From an uncultured Erythrobacter sp. (GTDB lineage: Bacteria; Pseudomonadota; Alphaproteobacteria; Sphingomonadales; Sphingomonadaceae), in assembly GCA_947504155.1 (NCBI GenBank), contig CANNGF010000004.1:4081-68080 (forward strand): a stretch of DNA of 64,000 nucleotides, read 5' to 3'. Position 1 is the first letter of the stretch; every line of letters starts with the position of its first letter. A program made the position numbers and the translations under genes. Shown here piece by piece: positions 631 to 8,729 of this stretch. The notes beneath the pieces are model-generated. The model made no database searches and had not been told where the DNA came from. It saw nothing but the letters and a program-made list of their open reading frames with translations.

Positions 631-3600
631 TCAGTCGTCTGCGCGCGGCCAACGCGCCCGCCCACGCCCCTTGCGGATCACATCCACAACTCGCGTGCCC
701 TCAACGACGATACCTGCAATCAGGCTTGGCTGCTGATCATTGATCGGCTTGACGAACGGCGCGACCGGCTGAAAATCCGGCGTCATCAGCCAAGTTCGCC
801 CATCGCCAGCCGCGTTGGCCACGACGCGATAGGGACCTGGCTCCGGCGGCTCATCAATGTCCAGTCGCCGTTTGAAGGATGCCGACGTCCATTTCTGGGC
901 GCCACCAGCGAGTGCCTCCGCCCGGAACCGCTTCCAGAGCTCGGCAGTGTCCGCGTTCGGCCATTCCCCCCCGTCGGTCAGAACGGCAATCTCGTTGCTC
1001 TCAAGCCAAGCTCGCATTTCGGCCGGGGTTACGAAATTGGGATCTGTCGCTTCAATTGCGGCGATCGCCGCACGGCGAGACGGCAATCCAGCACGGATCA
1101 ACATCGACATCATGAAGCGCGGCACGCCAGTCTCCAGCGCGGCCGCACCACCACCGGCGACGATCTCCGGCTCCCAGCCGAGACTGGCGCGGCGCGTGCG
1201 GATCGCCTCCAGCGCCCAGACCAGCCGATACATGAAGGCATCCTCGATAACGCGCATATGATGCGGACCGATCTCGGAAACTTCGGCGCCGGACACCCAT
1301 TGCTTGAGCAGCGCTCGCCAGTTTCCGGGCAGCGCGTTGCGCTTGTCGGGAATGAAGGGCCTCATCACCAGCAAGTGCTCCGCGAGACCCGCCAGAGCCT
1401 CGGCGAGCGCATCGGCATCGCCGGACAGCGACGCCAGATCGGCCTGGTCAACCAGCACGCCGAGATCAGCTGCCATGGCATCGATCTTCAATCCGGCCTC
1501 GAGCCCGACGCCCATCGCGAAATGGCCGCGCCGGACCTCTGGCGTGGTTACGGACCAGATGAGATTGGCGCGGGCTTCGAGCACCAGGCGATGCGCCTTC
1601 TCGATTTCCTCGCCCTCCCGACCAATCTGGCGAGCCCATAGCGATCCGGTCAGCGCCTGGTCGATCAGTGCAGGCAAATCCGCTTGGTCGGCATCGAGTG
1701 CTTCGATGAGGCCGAACACCGTGGCGTCGAGCCGTTCAACCAATTGCGACAACGGCTCTTCGTCGATCGCGTCGCTATCGTCCTCGCCGCCGCTCTCATC
1801 CTCGCCATCATCGTCGGCGGCGACAGCGACATTGTCGTCATCTGCGTTGGGCAGCGGCGCCGGTGCGTCGGCCTCCTCATCCACCGACCGCCAGGCTTCG
1901 CGGGCGTTGGCAAGATACTCAAAGGCATCCTCGCGATCGAGCACGCCCTCGCGGCCGAGGCGATCGAGAATCTCCGCGACAATCTGAATTAGGCCGCTCT
2001 TGAGCGTCCGAGCCTTGGACGACTGGACAAGTTTGCGCCATTCCCCCCGGCGGCGTGCGACCTTGTCGTAGGCGACATGCGCGATCAGCCCCTCGACATC
2101 GACGAAAGCGCGTCCGGCCCGTCCTGCGACATTGGCAAATTCCTCGCCGCCGATGATCTCGCCGGACCTGACGAGCGCCGGGACCAGCAGAACCGCCGCA
2201 TTGAGGTTCAAACCCTGCGAGAGAGTTGGAGAGGCCACGATCACCTTCAGCACACCTTCGGCCAAAAGCACTTCGAGCTCGCGCAGGAATGGGCTTGGCA
2301 AGCGACCGTGATGGATCGCCACACCGATCTTCAGGCAAGCGACCGCTGGGTGTTCCTCGCCGAGCCATTCGGCGCCCACCTCAAGCGCGCGGGAAATGGC
2401 TGCCTCGTCATCGAGCAGGGAGCTGAGATAGCCCTTCCGCACGAACATGCAGGCTTGCTTGCCATAGCCTTCGACCCAATTGGCCTGGGTGCAGAAGATC
2501 AGGGTGCGTTTTCCCTGCGCGGCGAACTCCCAAGCCGCGAACAGCGCGAGTTGTGCGGCCTTGCGCGGATAGGGCTTGCGATCCGGCTTGATCGCCGCCT
2601 TCTCCGTCACAAAGCCGTCGATGAACGGCACATTCTCATTGAGGTCGAGCGTTAGCCTCGCTTCGGTCTGCGCGGCATTCCAAGCGAGGAAACCGTAGCG
2701 CTGACGCGTCGGGCGCCAATCGCTCCGAACGGCTTCGCCGGACTGGTCGCTGCGAATCCATGCGGTCAGATCGTCCAGCTCGGCGCCGCTTGGCAGGATC
2801 GCCGAGAGGCAGACGATGCGACGGCTCGCTGCGTCCGACCGCAGCAACAGCCGCTGGACCAATGTCTCGAAGCGGATCTCGCGTTCGCTCGGGCCAATCA
2901 TATGGCCTTCATCGAGAACTATCAGGCCAACATCGTCGATCAATCCCGGATCGTTGCGTAGCGCGAAGTCGAGCTTTTCGGGGGTGGCGATTATGATCTC
3001 GCGAGACCGCAGTGCATCTTCGTCGCCGCTAGATACTCCGCTCGCCCCATAGAGCGACGACACGCTGAAGCCGAGCGGCGCGAAAGTGCGGCGAAAGGAC
3101 CGCTCCGTTTGGGCGGACAAGGCTCGCAGTGGCGTGACGAGCAGCACGCGGCGTCCGGTCGAGAGCGTCATCAGCGCGGCGATCTCGGCAACACGGGTCT
3201 TGCCGGCGCTGGTCGGCAGTGACACCACCAGATCATCGGTGAGGTCGGTCGACCGGTGCGCAGCATCCCGCTGTGAGGGCCAAAGTTCCACCTCCGCGGT
3301 GCCGCGCGCGTATAGCAGACCGATGAACAGGTCGCGCAGCTCAAGATATCGCTCGGCGCCGCCTTCGGGCGGTTCGACCGGTAGGGTGCGGTGAAACGAA
3401 TGTTCCCACAGATCGTCGATCACATGGCGGCAGAGGGCGATCGTCCACCAGAGCGAGACCATGCCGGCATTGTCTGCGATTCGCCCGGCGGTTGCGAGCA
3501 GGTCGCGGGCGTCCTGGATGAGCTTATCGTCACCCGTCTGCAGCCCGAAGTCGAAATAAGCGACGGCTCGGCAAATTGTGCCGTTTAGGATGATGGCGAA

Positions 3601-4161
3601 GGTCTCGTCCAGGTCGCCATCATCGGCATCAGCGAGCGCGGCGGCTATGGACTCGTCGTCCACATCGTCGCCGGCCAGCCACTCGCGGATATAGACGCGA
3701 AGTCGGTCGAGATCGCGCAGGATCAGCAGCTTGATCGCCACTTCTCCCGGCGCGAAGTTGAGATCGTCGGGTGCTTCGCTGAACAGTGAATAGGCCACTG
3801 CGGAGTAGCCGGCGAGATGATAGGCCGCCGCCGCCAATGTTCTGTGGAAGCCGAGATCCTTGTCTTCTGGATTCGCGTTGCGGCCCAGTGCTTCGAACGC
3901 CGTAGCGGCGCGATAGAAGCCTTGACCCGACAAAGGCGTCGAGCCTTCCAGCGATCGTAGCGCGAGCGATGCGCGTAGCACCGCGAAGCCATGTTCGGCG
4001 AGATCGGTCTCGATCGTCGCGCCGAGCGGTGGAGCGTCCGCGGGGAGCACGCCGTCGGCACGCATGAGCGACCACGCCGTTCCCCTGGAGTTGATCTGGC
4101 CCCAGACACCGGGCCGCGTCGCCGTCTTGAGAAAGCCGCGCAGTTCTTCAATCGTCTCCAA
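631..4161 (-). CDS. hamB: Hachiman anti-phage SF2 (Ski2-like DEAD/DEAH) helicase HamB
   Basis: Walker A LPTSAGKT, Walker B LDEGH, IHHG, ASPTLSQGLN and NVAGRAGR motifs; directly downstream of a DUF1837-like gene. Probable TTG start at 4161 behind GGAGG; the track start is 4179. Confidence 0.88.
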   Translation of the reverse strand: METIEELRGFLKTATRPGVWGQINSRGTAWSLMRADGVLPADAPPLGATIETDLAEHGFAVLRASLALRSLEGSTPLSGQGFYRAATAFEALGRNANPEDKDLGFHRTLAAAAYHLAGYSAVAYSLFSEAPDDLNFAPGEVAIKLLILRDLDRLRVYIREWLAGDDVDDESIAAALADADDGDLDETFAIILNGTICRAVAYFDFGLQTGDDKLIQDARDLLATAGRIADNAGMVSLWWTIALCRHVIDDLWEHSFHRTLPVEPPEGGAERYLELRDLFIGLLYARGTAEVELWPSQRDAAHRSTDLTDDLVVSLPTSAGKTRVAEIAALMTLSTGRRVLLVTPLRALSAQTERSFRRTFAPLGFSVSSLYGASGVSSGDEDALRSREIIIATPEKLDFALRNDPGLIDDVGLIVLDEGHMIGPSEREIRFETLVQRLLLRSDAASRRIVCLSAILPSGAELDDLTAWIRSDQSGEAVRSDWRPTRQRYGFLAWNAAQTEARLTLDLNENVPFIDGFVTEKAAIKPDRKPYPRKAAQLALFAAWEFAAQGKRTLIFCTQANWVEGYGKQACMFVRKGYLSSLLDDEAAISRALEVGAEWLGEEHPAVACLKIGVAIHHGRLPSPFLRELEVLLAEGVLKVIVASPTLSQGLNLNAAVLLVPALVRSGEIIGGEEFANVAGRAGRAFVDVEGLIAHVAYDKVARRRGEWRKLVQSSKARTLKSGLIQIVAEILDRLGREGVLDREDAFEYLANAREAWRSVDEEADAPAPLPNADDDNVAVAADDDGEDESGGEDDSDAIDEEPLSQLVERLDATVFGLIEALDADQADLPALIDQALTGSLWARQIGREGEEIEKAHRLVLEARANLIWSVTTPEVRRGHFAMGVGLEAGLKIDAMAADLGVLVDQADLASLSGDADALAEALAGLAEHLLVMRPFIPDKRNALPGNWRALLKQWVSGAEVSEIGPHHMRVIEDAFMYRLVWALEAIRTRRASLGWEPEIVAGGGAAALETGVPRFMMSMLIRAGLPSRRAAIAAIEATDPNFVTPAEMRAWLESNEIAVLTDGGEWPNADTAELWKRFRAEALAGGAQKWTSASFKRRLDIDEPPEPGPYRVVANAAGDGRTWLMTPDFQPVAPFVKPINDQQPSLIAGIVVEGTRVVDVIRKGRGRARWPRADD

Positions 4162-4927
4162 GGTTTTCCACCTCCTCATAGACCTCGGCGATAAAGTCCT
4201 GATGATCCTGAATCCGCAGATTGACGGCGAATTGCCGGCGGGCGGTGCTGGCCGCGTCGAGATCTGCCTTCAGGGCGGCCGGCGGCGCATTGCCCGATAG
4301 GGTGAACAGCATATGGTCGATGCGGGCATGCGGGACTGCCTCAAGCCCGACCTCGTCGCGGATCAGCCGACCGAGCGCGACATCATCCTCGTCGTCGCTT
4401 TCCAGCAGCAACTTGGCGACGAACAACAATGAACCGGGCGTGCAGCGCCCATTGTCGCGGTTCAGAACCTCGCGCGCCTTGGTGATGGTGGACTGGTTCA
4501 GATTGGCGGCACTCTTGGCTTCACCCTTGAGTAGCCAGAGCTTGCCACTCTCGCTCTCGCCCACGCCGATGAAATCGTCGCCGCGCATAGCCATTTCGCG
4601 GCCGTCCTTGTAGCGCAGGCGCCGCACGGGAACGCGAAGATCAACCATCTCTTCGACAAGCTCGGTTGCGACAATCTCGCCCAGATCGCCCGAACGTCCC
4701 TTCTTGCCCTGGGGCAGTTCGGCATTCAGGATCTTGGCGGCAGCCTTGTATCCCAGCCGCTCCACATCGGCGGCGATATGTTCGAGCCGATCGTAATGGG
4801 AGCGAACGGTTTCGATCAGGCTGTCGCGAACCTTCTCGCGACCATCTGCCTTCTCGACGAGCGTCCAATAAGACCGCCGTCCGTTTGCGTCGACCGTCCG
4901 GTCGCACCAACTCTTAAAAAGCGCCAC
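4148..4927 (-). CDS. hamA: Hachiman HamA (DUF1837-like PD-(D/E)xK nuclease)
   Basis: RSGDLGEI...RGDD...GEAKS motif series typical of HamA/DUF1837; 259 aa; stop overlaps the helicase start. Confidence 0.85.
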   Translation of the reverse strand: MALFKSWCDRTVDANGRRSYWTLVEKADGREKVRDSLIETVRSHYDRLEHIAADVERLGYKAAAKILNAELPQGKKGRSGDLGEIVATELVEEMVDLRVPVRRLRYKDGREMAMRGDDFIGVGESESGKLWLLKGEAKSAANLNQSTITKAREVLNRDNGRCTPGSLLFVAKLLLESDDEDDVALGRLIRDEVGLEAVPHARIDHMLFTLSGNAPPAALKADLDAASTARRQFAVNLRIQDHQDFIAEVYEEVENLGDD

Positions 4928-5299: not shown

Positions 5300-5623
5300 C
5301 TATGTGGCGCGAGGTCCAAACAGGATGATAGTAGCACCGATGAGACAGACGCTCGCGCCAATCATGTCCCACCTGTCTGGCTTGGCGCCTTCGACGATCC
5401 ATAGCCAAGCAATTGCCGAGACGATGTAAACACCGCCATAGGCTGCGTAAGTTCGGCCCGCATGTTCAGCTTCAACAAGCGTGAGCAAATAGGCGAAGAG
5501 AGCCAAGGCTATCATGCCCGGAACAACCCACCAGACCGACTTATCTAAGCGCAACCATGCCCAGAATGCGAAGCAACCTGCGATTTCAGCTATCGCTGCT
5601 CCGATGTATGCGAAGGCGGTCAT
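5300..5623 (-). CDS. ynfA: YnfA/UPF0060 family small multidrug-resistance-like membrane protein
   Basis: 107 aa, four hydrophobic segments; [24 protein letters not shown] and PDRWD motifs of YnfA. Confidence 0.9.
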
Positions 5624-5646
5624 GCCCTTCGTTCGCAGCTAAATTG

Positions 5647-5725
5647 AACATCCGCAATTGCGTCGTTGGGCGAACGACGGCTTTCCGCCTTTGTCGCATT
5701 GGAAGCTGACGGTCTGGAAGCGGCC
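5647..5725. repeat. Island spacer repeat cluster C
   Basis: AACATCCGCAATTGCGTCGTTGGGCGA followed by ACGACGGCTTTCCGCC (5674-5689; 13/16 to the start of unit 394-428). Internal CGTCGTT/AACGACG hairpin; GGAAGCGG core near 5716-5723. Confidence 0.6.
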
Positions 5726-5736
5726 CAGAATTGGAC

Positions 5737-6162
5737 TCAGTTTGTAGTGGAGACCCTTCCTGTTGCTTCGCGGATATCTTGCTCTGAATAGGGCGGTTCA
5801 GTGACATTTTGACCTGGCCGGTAATCTGGATGTTCACCGCACTTAACCCACCGTCCTTCGCCGATTTCGCCAGGACACCAGCCGCGTTTTTCCAAATCTA
5901 TTAAAAGTTTTCGCCTATTATTACATGCTCGCATTGTTTCCGGGGCGTCGCCGTGCCCACCTCGGCAGCGCGCATTCTCAGAGGCCGCCCTTTTCATTAA
6001 GGATTTGACCTTCAAGGCGCCTTTGCCAATGCCGATATCTCCATCGGCTGCGCTTTGGTCTACGACGGTGCTTTTTCTGTGACGCAACTGGTCCTGCTCC
6101 TCCGGACCGCAACTTGCCATGAGCACGAGCGGTAAGATGAGGGCTGCAAAATCTCCGCGCAT
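5737..6162 (-). CDS. Cys-rich hypothetical lipoprotein
   Basis: 141 aa; hydrophobic signal ending in lipobox-like LMASC; CRGGHGD...C...GWC...C pattern. Confidence 0.65.
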   Translation of the reverse strand: MRGDFAALILPLVLMASCGPEEQDQLRHRKSTVVDQSAADGDIGIGKGALKVKSLMKRAASENARCRGGHGDAPETMRACNNRRKLLIDLEKRGWCPGEIGEGRWVKCGEHPDYRPGQNVTEPPYSEQDIREATGRVSTTN

Positions 6163-6186
6163 ACAAACAAATTGTCACATTCTCTT

Positions 6187-6391
6187 GATGTCTGCAATGG
6201 GGTCTATTGTGTTGAAAAACTCCGCAGGCACCTTCGGCGGGAAATATTAAAACTCATAAGAGCTCATGCCTGCATCATTACCTCAAGACACCTTCTCCCG
6301 TTGGATCATTATTACGGAAAATCGGCTGCGGATCGGGTCAGGCCGAGTTTTTCAACACAATAGGGTCGTAAGCCGAATGGCTCCTTCGCGC
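6187..6391. repeat. Island spacer repeat cluster D, interrupted by a MITE-like insertion
   Basis: Removing 6205-6362 and one GGGTC restores GATGTCTGCAATGGGGTCGTAAGCCGAATGGCTCCTTCGCGC, colinear with cluster C at 27/42. Confidence 0.65.
6205..6362. mobile_element. 158-bp non-autonomous MITE-like element
   Basis: Perfect 18-bp TIRs TATTGTGTTGAAAAACTC (6205-6222) and GAGTTTTTCAACACAATA (6345-6362), flanked by GGGTC direct repeats (6200-6204, 6363-6367). Alternative reading: 19-bp TIR with a GGT duplication. Confidence 0.8.
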
Positions 6392-6441
6392 GTCAGGACC
6401 GCCAGGAGAAGACGGTCAGCTAACGGCCCCGTTCTTGGCTC

Positions 6442-8553
6442 TCAGGCTGACTTCTTTCGCCGTCCTCTGCGTGCACCGTGGCGTTGGCGCTCCAGCGGAC
6501 GCAACCTCAGTGGCCTTTGCTCGATATGTGCGGTCAGGAACGAGAGATGTTGGAGGGCGGCGAGTTTATCTCCCAGTTCGGCCTCCTCGTCGTAGGTCTG
6601 CTCGGTCTCGGTATTTCCTTCGTGTCCGAAGATGTCACAGCGGACACTATCGGCAACCTTTCCTTTCAGGATCGTGGTGCACAACCCCCGGTAGCTGTGC
6701 ACATTTTTGTCGATCCAGGCCCCCTTGTTTCGATGTCGCCATTCGGTGCCTTCAGGAAACGCCCACGCGCGCAGCTTATTAAACACTGACTTCCTAAAGG
6801 TGTCGGCAAAGCTTTTGGCTTTCGGAGCCTTCATTTCCGGAAACAGATATGTGTGACCAAGGCCTCGCATCTCACGAACATAATCGATGAAGCCGAGGCG
6901 AATAAGTTCAGGATGAATTGGCAGCTTACGGATGGACTGAACGTTCTTCAGATCGCGATCTTCAGTGTAGTCGATCTGCATGAATGGGATTGGGTCATCT
7001 TCATGCACATCCGCCAGCCGCAGTCCGGCTAGTTCGGAACTCCGGCCACCATAGAGCGGCAGCATTAATGGTAGATAATACCAAGCGTCGTGAAAAATCT
7101 CGTCGCCAGCGCTCAGGCGATCGTCCAGGCTTGCTGAACCGGACCACACCGGGGCGTTCAGGATGTGACAAACCTCTTCCTTGGTCCAGTTCGCCCGCAG
7201 GTCGCGCTTGCGCTTTGCTTTCCGGCCGCCATTCTTCGTCAGCGTTGCGCGAGCCGATCTAAAATCGAGAGGTTCTGCTGTCTTATGGCCACCGCCCTCC
7301 GCGCTTGAGCTAAACTCGATGACCTTCCCGATCCAAGTCAGGTGCTTGTTCATCGTTTTCTGGCTGATGCCGAGTTCGGATGCGGGCATCTCTTTCGCCC
7401 GCTCCAAACTGGCTGGGAAGCCATGCTCGCGTTCGGCAGTGGTGCGACCCCAACGATTGGGGAGGGCCCGGCACAGCGCCTTGAATTTCGACACACTTTC
7501 TTGACCGATGTCTTCAACTTTGATGTTCCCACCGCAAGCGAAGTCGAACATCGCGATAGCTGTTCGAACCTGCTTGATAGTGTCGGGGCTCCAGCCATCT
7601 TCGTAAGAGGCCGCCGCGATGCAATCTTCAGCGGCCGTTTTCAGCAGCTTGGTATTGGCGACCTCGGCCTTTGAGCGCTGAGCAGGAGCCTTGGTTTCAG
7701 CAGCCAAATCAGCTGTTTTGGGCGAAGCTTTTTGGGCGTATTCCTTTTGCGGCTCTCTACCAGCCTCTTCATAACAAGCGGATGATTCAACTGGCTCGGG
7801 CGTAATCGGCGTCGGCTCAGTAGCATGCGCCTCATCGTCGGTCTCTTGCTCGTCAGGTCCACTGGCCGCAGGTTCGGAGCTTGTCTCATAGGCGAGGGGG
7901 GAATCGTCCCGAAGAGCCTCGTCGATCCAATCTCGGAAATCGAACCTGCTATCCGGCAATTGTCGTGAAGCCTCCCGGCAAGCAGCCGCTCGCGCCTCAT
8001 AGATCAGGCGCTGCAGCTTTTCGAGGTTTGAGCGAGTCGGGGTGATTCCGAAGCTGGAGGCGTAGTCGTCGATTTGACGCTTCGATACTTCGATCTGTCC
8101 CCGGCGCTCATGACACAACATTGCGACGCACGATGCATCATTCGCAGACCAGCCTTGCGCTAGGAGATCGTCGAAGTGATCTGGAGTAAAATCGGCATTA
8201 ATTCCGCGACGGGCGCGGATGTCCCAGAACTCCGCGAAGACTCGATTGACGCGCGTGTCTTCGGCCGGATCGCCGCCTCCTCCGATCTGATCTGTCAAGA
8301 TACGGTTCAATTGGACTCGCAGCGCGTCCTTGAACACACCCTTCATTTGATCGGGACGGATCGCTAATCCAACACTTCCATACGACATGACCAAGTTCCT
8401 CGCCTGAACCTCCAGACGAGCCATAATATCACACGCAGTTCTATAGTTGCCAGTGCAAAGTGAGAACGAAACAGAAACGGGTGTTCCGGCAAGGGTGAAC
8501 TTGCGGCGCCAGTGATAGGATCCACCGCGAAGGCGAAGATTGGTAATCGTCAT
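6442..8553 (-). CDS. Large tyrosine recombinase/integrase with DUF6538-like N-terminus (~703 aa)
   Basis: Catalytic series GGRSSE(R), HSYR (H-x-x-R), FGHE (H) and QTY (Y). N-terminus MTITNLRLRGGSYHWRRK. ATG at 8553 with GGAG upstream; the track start is 8637. Confidence 0.9.
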   Translation of the reverse strand: MTITNLRLRGGSYHWRRKFTLAGTPVSVSFSLCTGNYRTACDIMARLEVQARNLVMSYGSVGLAIRPDQMKGVFKDALRVQLNRILTDQIGGGGDPAEDTRVNRVFAEFWDIRARRGINADFTPDHFDDLLAQGWSANDASCVAMLCHERRGQIEVSKRQIDDYASSFGITPTRSNLEKLQRLIYEARAAACREASRQLPDSRFDFRDWIDEALRDDSPLAYETSSEPAASGPDEQETDDEAHATEPTPITPEPVESSACYEEAGREPQKEYAQKASPKTADLAAETKAPAQRSKAEVANTKLLKTAAEDCIAAASYEDGWSPDTIKQVRTAIAMFDFACGGNIKVEDIGQESVSKFKALCRALPNRWGRTTAEREHGFPASLERAKEMPASELGISQKTMNKHLTWIGKVIEFSSSAEGGGHKTAEPLDFRSARATLTKNGGRKAKRKRDLRANWTKEEVCHILNAPVWSGSASLDDRLSAGDEIFHDAWYYLPLMLPLYGGRSSELAGLRLADVHEDDPIPFMQIDYTEDRDLKNVQSIRKLPIHPELIRLGFIDYVREMRGLGHTYLFPEMKAPKAKSFADTFRKSVFNKLRAWAFPEGTEWRHRNKGAWIDKNVHSYRGLCTTILKGKVADSVRCDIFGHEGNTETEQTYDEEAELGDKLAALQHLSFLTAHIEQRPLRLRPLERQRHGARRGRRKKSA

Positions 8554-8568
8554 CGAATGCGCTCCCTT

Positions 8569-8589
8569 TGGGAACAGCGATGGGAACAG
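8569..8589. repeat. 9-bp direct repeat TGGGAACAG x2 between the integrase start and the tRNA
   Basis: Exact copies at 8569-8577 and 8581-8589 (12-bp period). Confidence 0.6.
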
Positions 8590-8652
8590 GTTTGGGGACA
8601 AACCTACCCGACCGCTGAGAGGACCGCCTATTTTCAATGACTTAGATGGAAT

Positions 8653-8729
8653 TGGTCGGGGAGAGAGGATTCGAACCTCCGGCCCCTGCCTCCCGAAGAC
8701 AGTGCTCTACCAGGCTGAGCTACTCCCCG
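8653..8729 (-). tRNA. tRNA-Pro (anticodon CGG)
   Basis: CGGGGAGTAGCTCAGCCTGGTAGAGCA-CTGTC-TTCGGGA-GGCAG...GTTCGAATC...CTCCCCGACCA; 77 nt, CCA encoded. Confidence 0.97.

Follow-up and report, generated by a model that had tools for sequence, protein, structure and literature searches.

The 158-bp segment at positions 6205–6362 of the window (the whole stretch of DNA analysed here, 64 kb in length) was identified as a MITE of the IS1182 family, an assignment to which we give a probability of about 93%. An element not classifiable from a reading of its sequence alone is thereby placed in a family and given a candidate partner. As a MITE it is ordinary and of an already-known kind; the points of interest are its target consensus and the underlying repeat. 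One IS1182 clade was found to have a strong symmetric target preference that is common to three proteobacterial classes and would turn these elements into predictable markers, and the analysis points to a genus-wide dispersed repeat whose core coincides with the breakpoints of horizontally exchanged segments. Here, G000 denotes the window's own genome, the other G-numbers compared genomes, C-numbers contigs and L-numbers loci.

The element and its borders are made up as follows:

6200–6204: left TSD copy, GGGTC; in the repeat consensus this centre is single-copy
6205–6362, plus strand: MITE of 158 bp, a non-autonomous IS1182-family derivative on the basis of its TIRs and relatives
6205–6222, plus strand: left TIR, TATTGTGTTGAAAAACTC, identical to the ends of more than 15 IS1182-family ISs
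6345–6362, minus strand: right TIR, the perfect reverse complement of the left one, also given by an inverted-repeat finder
6363–6367: right TSD copy, GGGTC

The sequence across the element reads ...CTGCAATGGGGTC / TATTGTGTTGAAAAACTC ... GAGTTTTTCAACACAATA / GGGTCGTAAGCC..., with GGGTC as a direct repeat bordering both ends. Exact matches to TATTGTGTTGAAAAACTC occur twice in the 64-kb window, one per strand, compared to a chance expectation of 0.02 matches in shuffled sequence with up to 3 mismatches permitted. The plus orientation of the MITE agrees with that of full-length ISs, position 19 being C on the left and G on the right. A single ORF spans the element (6172–6363, 63 aa); it gave no match in a Pfam search, and the element is without coding capacity. 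The 158-bp length, the perfect 18-bp TIRs, the GGGTC duplication and the lack of a transposase, all recorded in the initial annotation, were thus confirmed in the sequence. That the element is non-autonomous, as had also been proposed, is borne out by its TIRs and TSD together with the empty sites and the many loci at which it is found. Perfect TIRs, a TSD, a small size without a transposase gene and polymorphic copies at multiple loci, by which membership of the MITEs is judged, were all observed.

Joining the flanks (with the MITE and one GGGTC removed) and searching 85 genomes of the genus revealed an unoccupied site in G343, a member of the same genus, with 97% identity unbroken across the junction. 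This is the empty-site allele that had been suggested as a check in related strains. It reads ...CTGCAATGGGTCGTAAGCC..., with a G-run one G shorter than predicted and GGGTC itself present; the repeat consensus has four Gs at this point, as predicted. The G343 genome, searched throughout, contains no copy of the element. A reciprocal case is provided by a copy in G349 (L145), which is 99% identical and has GGGCT at both flanks: its exact unoccupied counterpart lies in G000 (CCCTGATAGGGCTGGTCCTGAGCC at C2:~942590), where the pentamer is single-copy.

Copies at 97–99% identity were detected in 9 genomes at some 10 further loci, every locus different, with copies in G117, G308 (three), G346, G347, G349, G359 and G361, all of them Qipengyuania or relatives. 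Within the genus, the MITE is present in 8 of the 85 genomes at 1–3 copies per genome; G000 (3.2 Mb) holds one. Recent spread is implied, the copies being near-identical although G343 and the window have only 74% identity in their core genes. An older divergence is represented by a copy in G100 (Alteripontixanthobacter), 70% identical, exactly 158 bp in length, with identical TIRs and GACCC on both sides. The TSDs at the sister loci are mostly 5 bp (GGGCC, GGCCC, GGGCT), and the earlier suggestion of a fixed GGGTC target has to be abandoned, as GGGCC, GGCCC, GACCC, GGGCT and others also occur.

The initial annotation had left the IS family unassigned; it was now obtained by searching genomes with the TIR. 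An exact TIR scan of public genomes, taking one genome per species, returned at least 120 stretches, in which the paired ends delimit either MITE-sized (130–221 bp) or IS-sized (1.52–1.61 kb) elements. More than 15 full-length ISs of 1.52–1.61 kb carry the same ends and IS1182-family transposases; the IS-sized elements all encode transposases of 450–480 aa that are ~60% identical to the one resident in G000. The IS ORFs compared to NF033551 (IS1182 family; n = 4–5) were all above its cut-off (E = 1e-119 to 1e-131), and those on the 1.58–1.60-kb ISs with the exact TIR scored 398–437 bits against a cut-off of 270. The parent family of the MITE is therefore IS1182, from the ends it has in common with ISs that bear NF033551 transposases.

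A search of the window's own genome with the 18-mer, permitting a few mismatches, located a resident IS of 1527 bp (C1:587849–589375), which holds the only IS1182 transposase gene in G000. Its protein, encoded at C1:587956–589284, is an intact 459 aa, scores 426 bits with NF033551 (cut-off 270) and matches DUF772, DDE_Tnp_1_6 and DDE_Tnp_1 in Pfam. The IS is bordered on both sides by CGCCCC, and its site fits the target motif described below. The nearest named plasmid relatives of its transposase are ISShsp2-like and ISGdi16-like (71–72% aa identity), on sphingomonad and Acetobacter plasmids, and proteins of up to 84% aa identity occur on Rhizorhabdus wittichii plasmids. This resident element is a candidate mobiliser of the MITE. 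Its ends, TATTCTGTTGAAAAACTC and TATTCCGTTGAAAAAGTC, match those of the MITE at 17/18 and 15/18 positions; given these 1 and 3 differences, and a resident transposase only ~60% identical to those of the ISs whose ends match exactly, cross-mobilisation is no more than a possibility. Among the matches listed from the public genome scan, none is an Erythrobacteraceae IS that carries the exact ends. Of ten MITE-bearing genomes checked, only G346 and G100 contain an IS1182 transposase, and their local ISs sit in the same repeat modules as the insertions described below; the eight in which none was found are listed as G308, G349, G347, G361, G359, G377, G117 and G343.

The MITE ends (…GTTGAAAAA[C/G]TC) are thus the 18-bp ends of the 1.52–1.61-kb NF033551 ISs. 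Unlike these ISs, the MITE has no transposase gene and an interior unrelated to those sampled: past position 19 no alignment was obtained with any of them, and none qualifies as a parent by deletion. What the MITE appears to keep is only the 18-bp ends that a DDE transposase would recognise, with ~120 bp of non-coding interior between them, and it would therefore move only with a transposase supplied in trans. The resident IS1182 element at C1:587849–589375 may be the source, or an IS since lost. We infer such mobilisation in trans, together with integration by a staggered cut.

In size and make-up the element resembles classical bacterial MITEs such as Correia/NEMIS and MITEAba12 (PMC6382973), which are ~100–250 bp, carry the TIRs of a parent IS, are flanked by a TSD, lack an ORF and are patchily distributed. 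It differs from them in its low copy number (1–3 per genome) and its strong site preference.

A sequence logo built from 200 half-sites reads GAAnGnCnGCTTTsGGCC, followed directly by the TIR, with ~7 bits per half-site and conservation as far as position –18, which makes the full site symmetric and ~30 bp long. One IS1182 clade (ends TATTGTGTTGAAAAACTC), together with MITEs of 130–221 bp, has this ~30-bp symmetric target in common across alpha-, beta- and gammaproteobacteria (L011–L130). Most elements have a duplication of the central 4 bp (GGCC, GGTC, GACC, GGCA, TGTC), compared to 5–6 bp in the 158-bp alphaproteobacterial class; of the paired elements that the wider scan gave, about one quarter have no perfect duplication. 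The two flanks of a given insertion are not complementary in excess (7.60, versus 7.97 for shuffled partners); since paired flanks are no more complementary than unpaired ones, the preference is for a sequence and not for any hairpin. Strict half-site words are not enriched in the genome, these words being those of the pan-proteobacterial consensus and not of the local repeat. The beta- and gammaproteobacterial insertion targets were also considered as a single repeat family, which was rejected, only two same-genome pairs being related. In the literature searched, no description of this target consensus, nor of a named MITE with these ends, was found.

Integration would proceed by a staggered cut of 5 bp in the middle of a motif that is approximately GAAnGnCnGCTTTn-[4–6 bp, GGYC-like]-nAAAGCnGnCnTTC, and such a cut would duplicate the central pentamer, in this case GGGTC. 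For the IS1182 family, duplications are mostly of 4 bp, as recorded for its member ISPse1 of Paracoccus (PMC3281130), whereas those of the Erythrobacteraceae subgroup are of 5–6 bp. Another member of the family, IS1272, undergoes 'IR-replacing' transposition, in which the target IR is replaced and no duplication is left (PMC5678879). The present elements resemble IS1272 in family and in their preference for inverted-repeat targets; however, here the target is intact on both sides, a duplication of 4–6 bp is found, and a sequence consensus is preferred rather than any hairpin.

The initial annotation held that removal of the MITE restores a repeat colinear with a nearby one, its cluster C. This is correct. 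The repeat was first defined by aligning cluster C with short stretches of ten other genomes that match the junction region, giving the consensus A.GTCCGCAATGGGGTCGTTAGCCGAATGGC.GCTTT-(~20 variable)-A.AGCAGAC.GTCCG.AA.CGGCCCA..T.C.G.CATTC. It is ~95 bp in length and composed of three target-like palindromes, namely module 1 (GGGGTC centre), a wide middle module and module 3 (CGGCCC centre). The joined flanks match the repeat profile across the junction over positions 4–97 (E = 1.7e-17). The two copies in the window, here called C and D, are placed as follows:

5647–5737, plus strand: repeat C, an unoccupied second copy (profile E = 1.4e-15)
5721–5726, plus strand: CGGCCC core of repeat C, where high-identity homology with G343 begins
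6187–6204, plus strand: left piece of repeat D, the left half of module 1, severed by the MITE
6363–6444, plus strand: right piece of repeat D, the right half of module 1 with modules 2 and 3
6424–6429, plus strand: CGGCCC core of repeat D, intact, where the 96.6% homology with G343 stops

Within the window, the profile matches C and D only; clusters A and B of the island gave no match. Pairwise comparisons of the emptied D with C, A and B, an underpowered test, were not significant (p ~0.08 for D versus C), and the family is recognisable only from copies in other genomes. A profile search found ~23 copies in G000, all intergenic and clustered in a few regions; regions with the repeat include C3:30–90 kb, C3:517–519 kb and C1:1148–1171 kb. 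The repeat takes up ~0.07% of the genome and is found in all 85 genomes of the genus, at 1–44 copies each.

The relation of this repeat to known structured repeats was also considered. A search of Rfam at E ≤ 1 gave no family in the four related loci scanned, which include the empty-site locus of G343, and RNAalifold gave one invariant 7-bp pairing only, with no covariation. Like REPs and BIMEs, the repeat is dispersed and intergenic; however, no RAYT gene (PF01797) was found in the genome and there is no hairpin covariation. A REP-type origin was set aside as doubtful on the lack of a RAYT gene. Identity with attC was rejected: the consensus contains no GTTRRRY/RYYYAAC pair and no covarying stem, and the neighbouring ORF has no integrase profile match.

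Empty sites were reconstructed for 28 independent Erythrobacteraceae insertions (25 MITEs and 3 ISs). Half of them (14/28) lie inside a copy of the repeat, with a profile match spanning the junction. Twelve of these 14 junctions fall at profile positions 77–85, the CGGCCC core, and the other two, the window's own copy and L023, at positions 16–20, the centre of module 1. The earlier proposal that the element targets this repeat family, which makes up such a small fraction of the genome, therefore holds. In the Erythrobacteraceae, the target motif is part of the dispersed intergenic repeat, and the elements therefore home to that repeat, mostly at its CGGCCC core and now and then, as here, at the GGGGTC centre of module 1.

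The ISs IS1397, ISKpn1, ISPpu9 and ISPpu10 belong to the IS3 and IS110 families. Targeting of the REP type is represented by the first two, in BIMEs, and by the last two, in REPs (survey in PMC1525189). The likeness to the present case lies in insertion at a fixed point within a dispersed, intergenic, palindromic repeat that is far more widespread than the IS. The differences are that the elements here are of an IS1182 clade, that neither a RAYT gene nor left–right covariation was found, and that the same symmetric consensus recurs in alpha-, beta- and gammaproteobacteria.

The genes that surround the element in the 5' region of the window are listed below; this region is the end of a tRNA-anchored island.

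631–4927, minus strand: hamB/hamA, Hachiman defence; a 1182-aa DEAD/ResIII helicase (HamB-like), then a 259-aa HamA-domain protein
5300–5623, minus strand: ynfA
5737–6162, minus strand: predicted lipoprotein gene, 141 aa, no family match
6442–8637, minus strand: ORF of 731 aa with R/HxxR/H/Y-like motifs in its C-terminus
8653–8729, minus strand: tRNA-Pro(CGG), the island anchor

Beyond the tRNA-Pro lies thyA on the plus strand, and no second att repeat of the tRNA-Pro was found on the contig in G000. The MITE is upstream of the lipoprotein gene, with its left end 42 bp from the start codon, and the insertion may alter expression of this gene; a promoter and terminator scan of 5500–6700 gave nothing. 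The 731-aa ORF is predicted, from its motifs only, to be a divergent tyrosine recombinase; searches of Pfam, NCBIfam and PDB sequences gave no match, nor did its C-terminal 264 aa at E ≤ 10. G343 contains its own island at the same tRNA-Pro (C6:25000–60000; L141/L142), with a 58-bp repeat of the 3' end of the tRNA at its borders, and this island has mosaic segments in common with G000 C3:58–83 kb at 90–99% identity (MscS, META, EamA, IS5-type IS).

At seven junction points, distributed over four loci, the homology of one genome with another is interrupted at the CGGCCC core of the repeat. In the window, the lipoprotein gene and repeat D form a ~705-bp module in common with G343 that is 96.6% identical, compared to 74% for core genes, and this high identity extends from GCGGCCC of repeat C to ACGGCCC of repeat D. 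In G343, the module has other neighbours, an IS3-type transposase gene on one side and a hydrolase gene on the other. Elsewhere in the bacterial family the module was absent from 400 sampled genomes. At C3:87.9–90.3 kb, where the cores lie at 612–617 and 2864–2869 of L165 (G000:C3:87400–90900), three genomes (G347, G321 and G097) match the left flank and modules 1 and 2 of the first repeat of G000 at 91%, and part from G000 and from one another directly after CGGCC(C), so that four genomes have one left arm and four different right arms. An inverted copy of this first repeat in G344 (G344:C35) is 99% identical on the right side and unrelated on the left, the change falling at the core, and the second repeat has the same pattern in G308. 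At C2:973 kb (G000:C2:~973150), a 97%-identical block in common with G362 stops two bases past the core.

This breakpoint pattern is the product expected from site-specific exchange at the core, and suggests exchangeable modules. We tentatively propose, as a reading for which the odds are somewhat short of even, that the repeat is a recombination site whose arms assort independently at the core through a putative recombinase, and that the IS1182-clade elements evolved to home there. By analogy, and with the same reserve, the repeat-bounded modules may be comparable to integron cassettes or to the dif modules of Acinetobacter. If this is true, the repeat would give marine Erythrobacteraceae a so far unrecognised means of exchanging gene modules, and the MITE/IS family would be a further case of transposons sheltering in recombination sites. 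The IS1111-attC group targets integrons, and ISAjo2/IS1202-group ISs target pdif/dif sites (PMC10132070); in both, as here, the short site to which the IS homes is also a boundary of exchangeable modules, the CGGCCC core being both the preferred insertion point and the breakpoint of homology between genomes. The present system differs from the attC and pdif systems in having no attC architecture, no IntI and no resemblance to dif, and module exchange is deduced here from the seven junctions described above.

The exchange of the lipoprotein module raises the question of whether the MITE was inserted in this genome at all, or was imported within the module by horizontal transfer, in which case it would have no bearing on transposition activity in G000. 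The module was clearly exchanged between species, the genome has a single MITE copy, and most MITE-bearing genomes are without the transposase, all of which would fit import. However, G343 carries the module without the MITE, and the insertion therefore post-dates the module; moreover, G000 holds an intact related IS. We consider import possible and on balance unlikely, and the identity of the element as an IS1182-family MITE is unaffected by it.

A stronger form of the cassette idea, put forward in the initial annotation, takes C and D as sites in an integron-like array at which the neighbouring integrase recombines DNA, the MITE having disabled the integrase-proximal site. The idea of a cassette-like site is not an empty one, because homology blocks start and stop exactly at the cores of C and D; in addition, the lipoprotein module stands out by its identity to G343, core junctions recur at three other loci, and the MITE family prefers the core. 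This part of the proposal survives. However, the repeat occurs genome-wide and in every genome of the genus; it is neither island-specific nor tied to the ORF, and the G343 module has no homologue of the 6442–8637 ORF beside it. Clusters A and B lack a match to the repeat profile, and the supposed integrase has no profile match. Nor is inactivation of the integrase-proximal site supported, since the MITE sits in a minor centre (module 1) and leaves the core of D untouched. An integron-like array with a disabled proximal site is therefore improbable.

That the 158-bp segment is instead a native structured feature, such as an sRNA, a terminator or a regulatory hairpin, and not mobile, is very improbable: its long predicted hairpin (DNA, –28.3 kcal/mol, z = –4.0) and the retention of length and some internal motifs across the 158-bp class at 60–70% identity could be cited in favour, but the hairpin is simply the pairing of the TIRs, no Rfam family was found in the related loci scanned, presence/absence polymorphism at two loci contradicts it, near-identical copies with target duplications occupy unrelated loci, and ISs that encode a transposase have identical ends. 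The segment is thus best regarded as an IS1182-family MITE.

Two minor observations concern the repeat and the interior of the element. G363 and G344 have in common a repeat unit of 84 nt (L134 and L136, 1461–1544) at 97.6% identity, compared to only 79% for a nearby gene; this counts among the observations behind the proposed exchange, and the unit may itself move or be converted. Within the 158-bp class there is an internal inverted pair, GCAACAATGATTCAAG … TGAATCATTGTTGCC, at about 6270–6320 of the window, which bears two GANTC (CcrM-type) sites; in the lineage of the window its left arm has degenerated, and its right arm has GGATC in the window's copy only.
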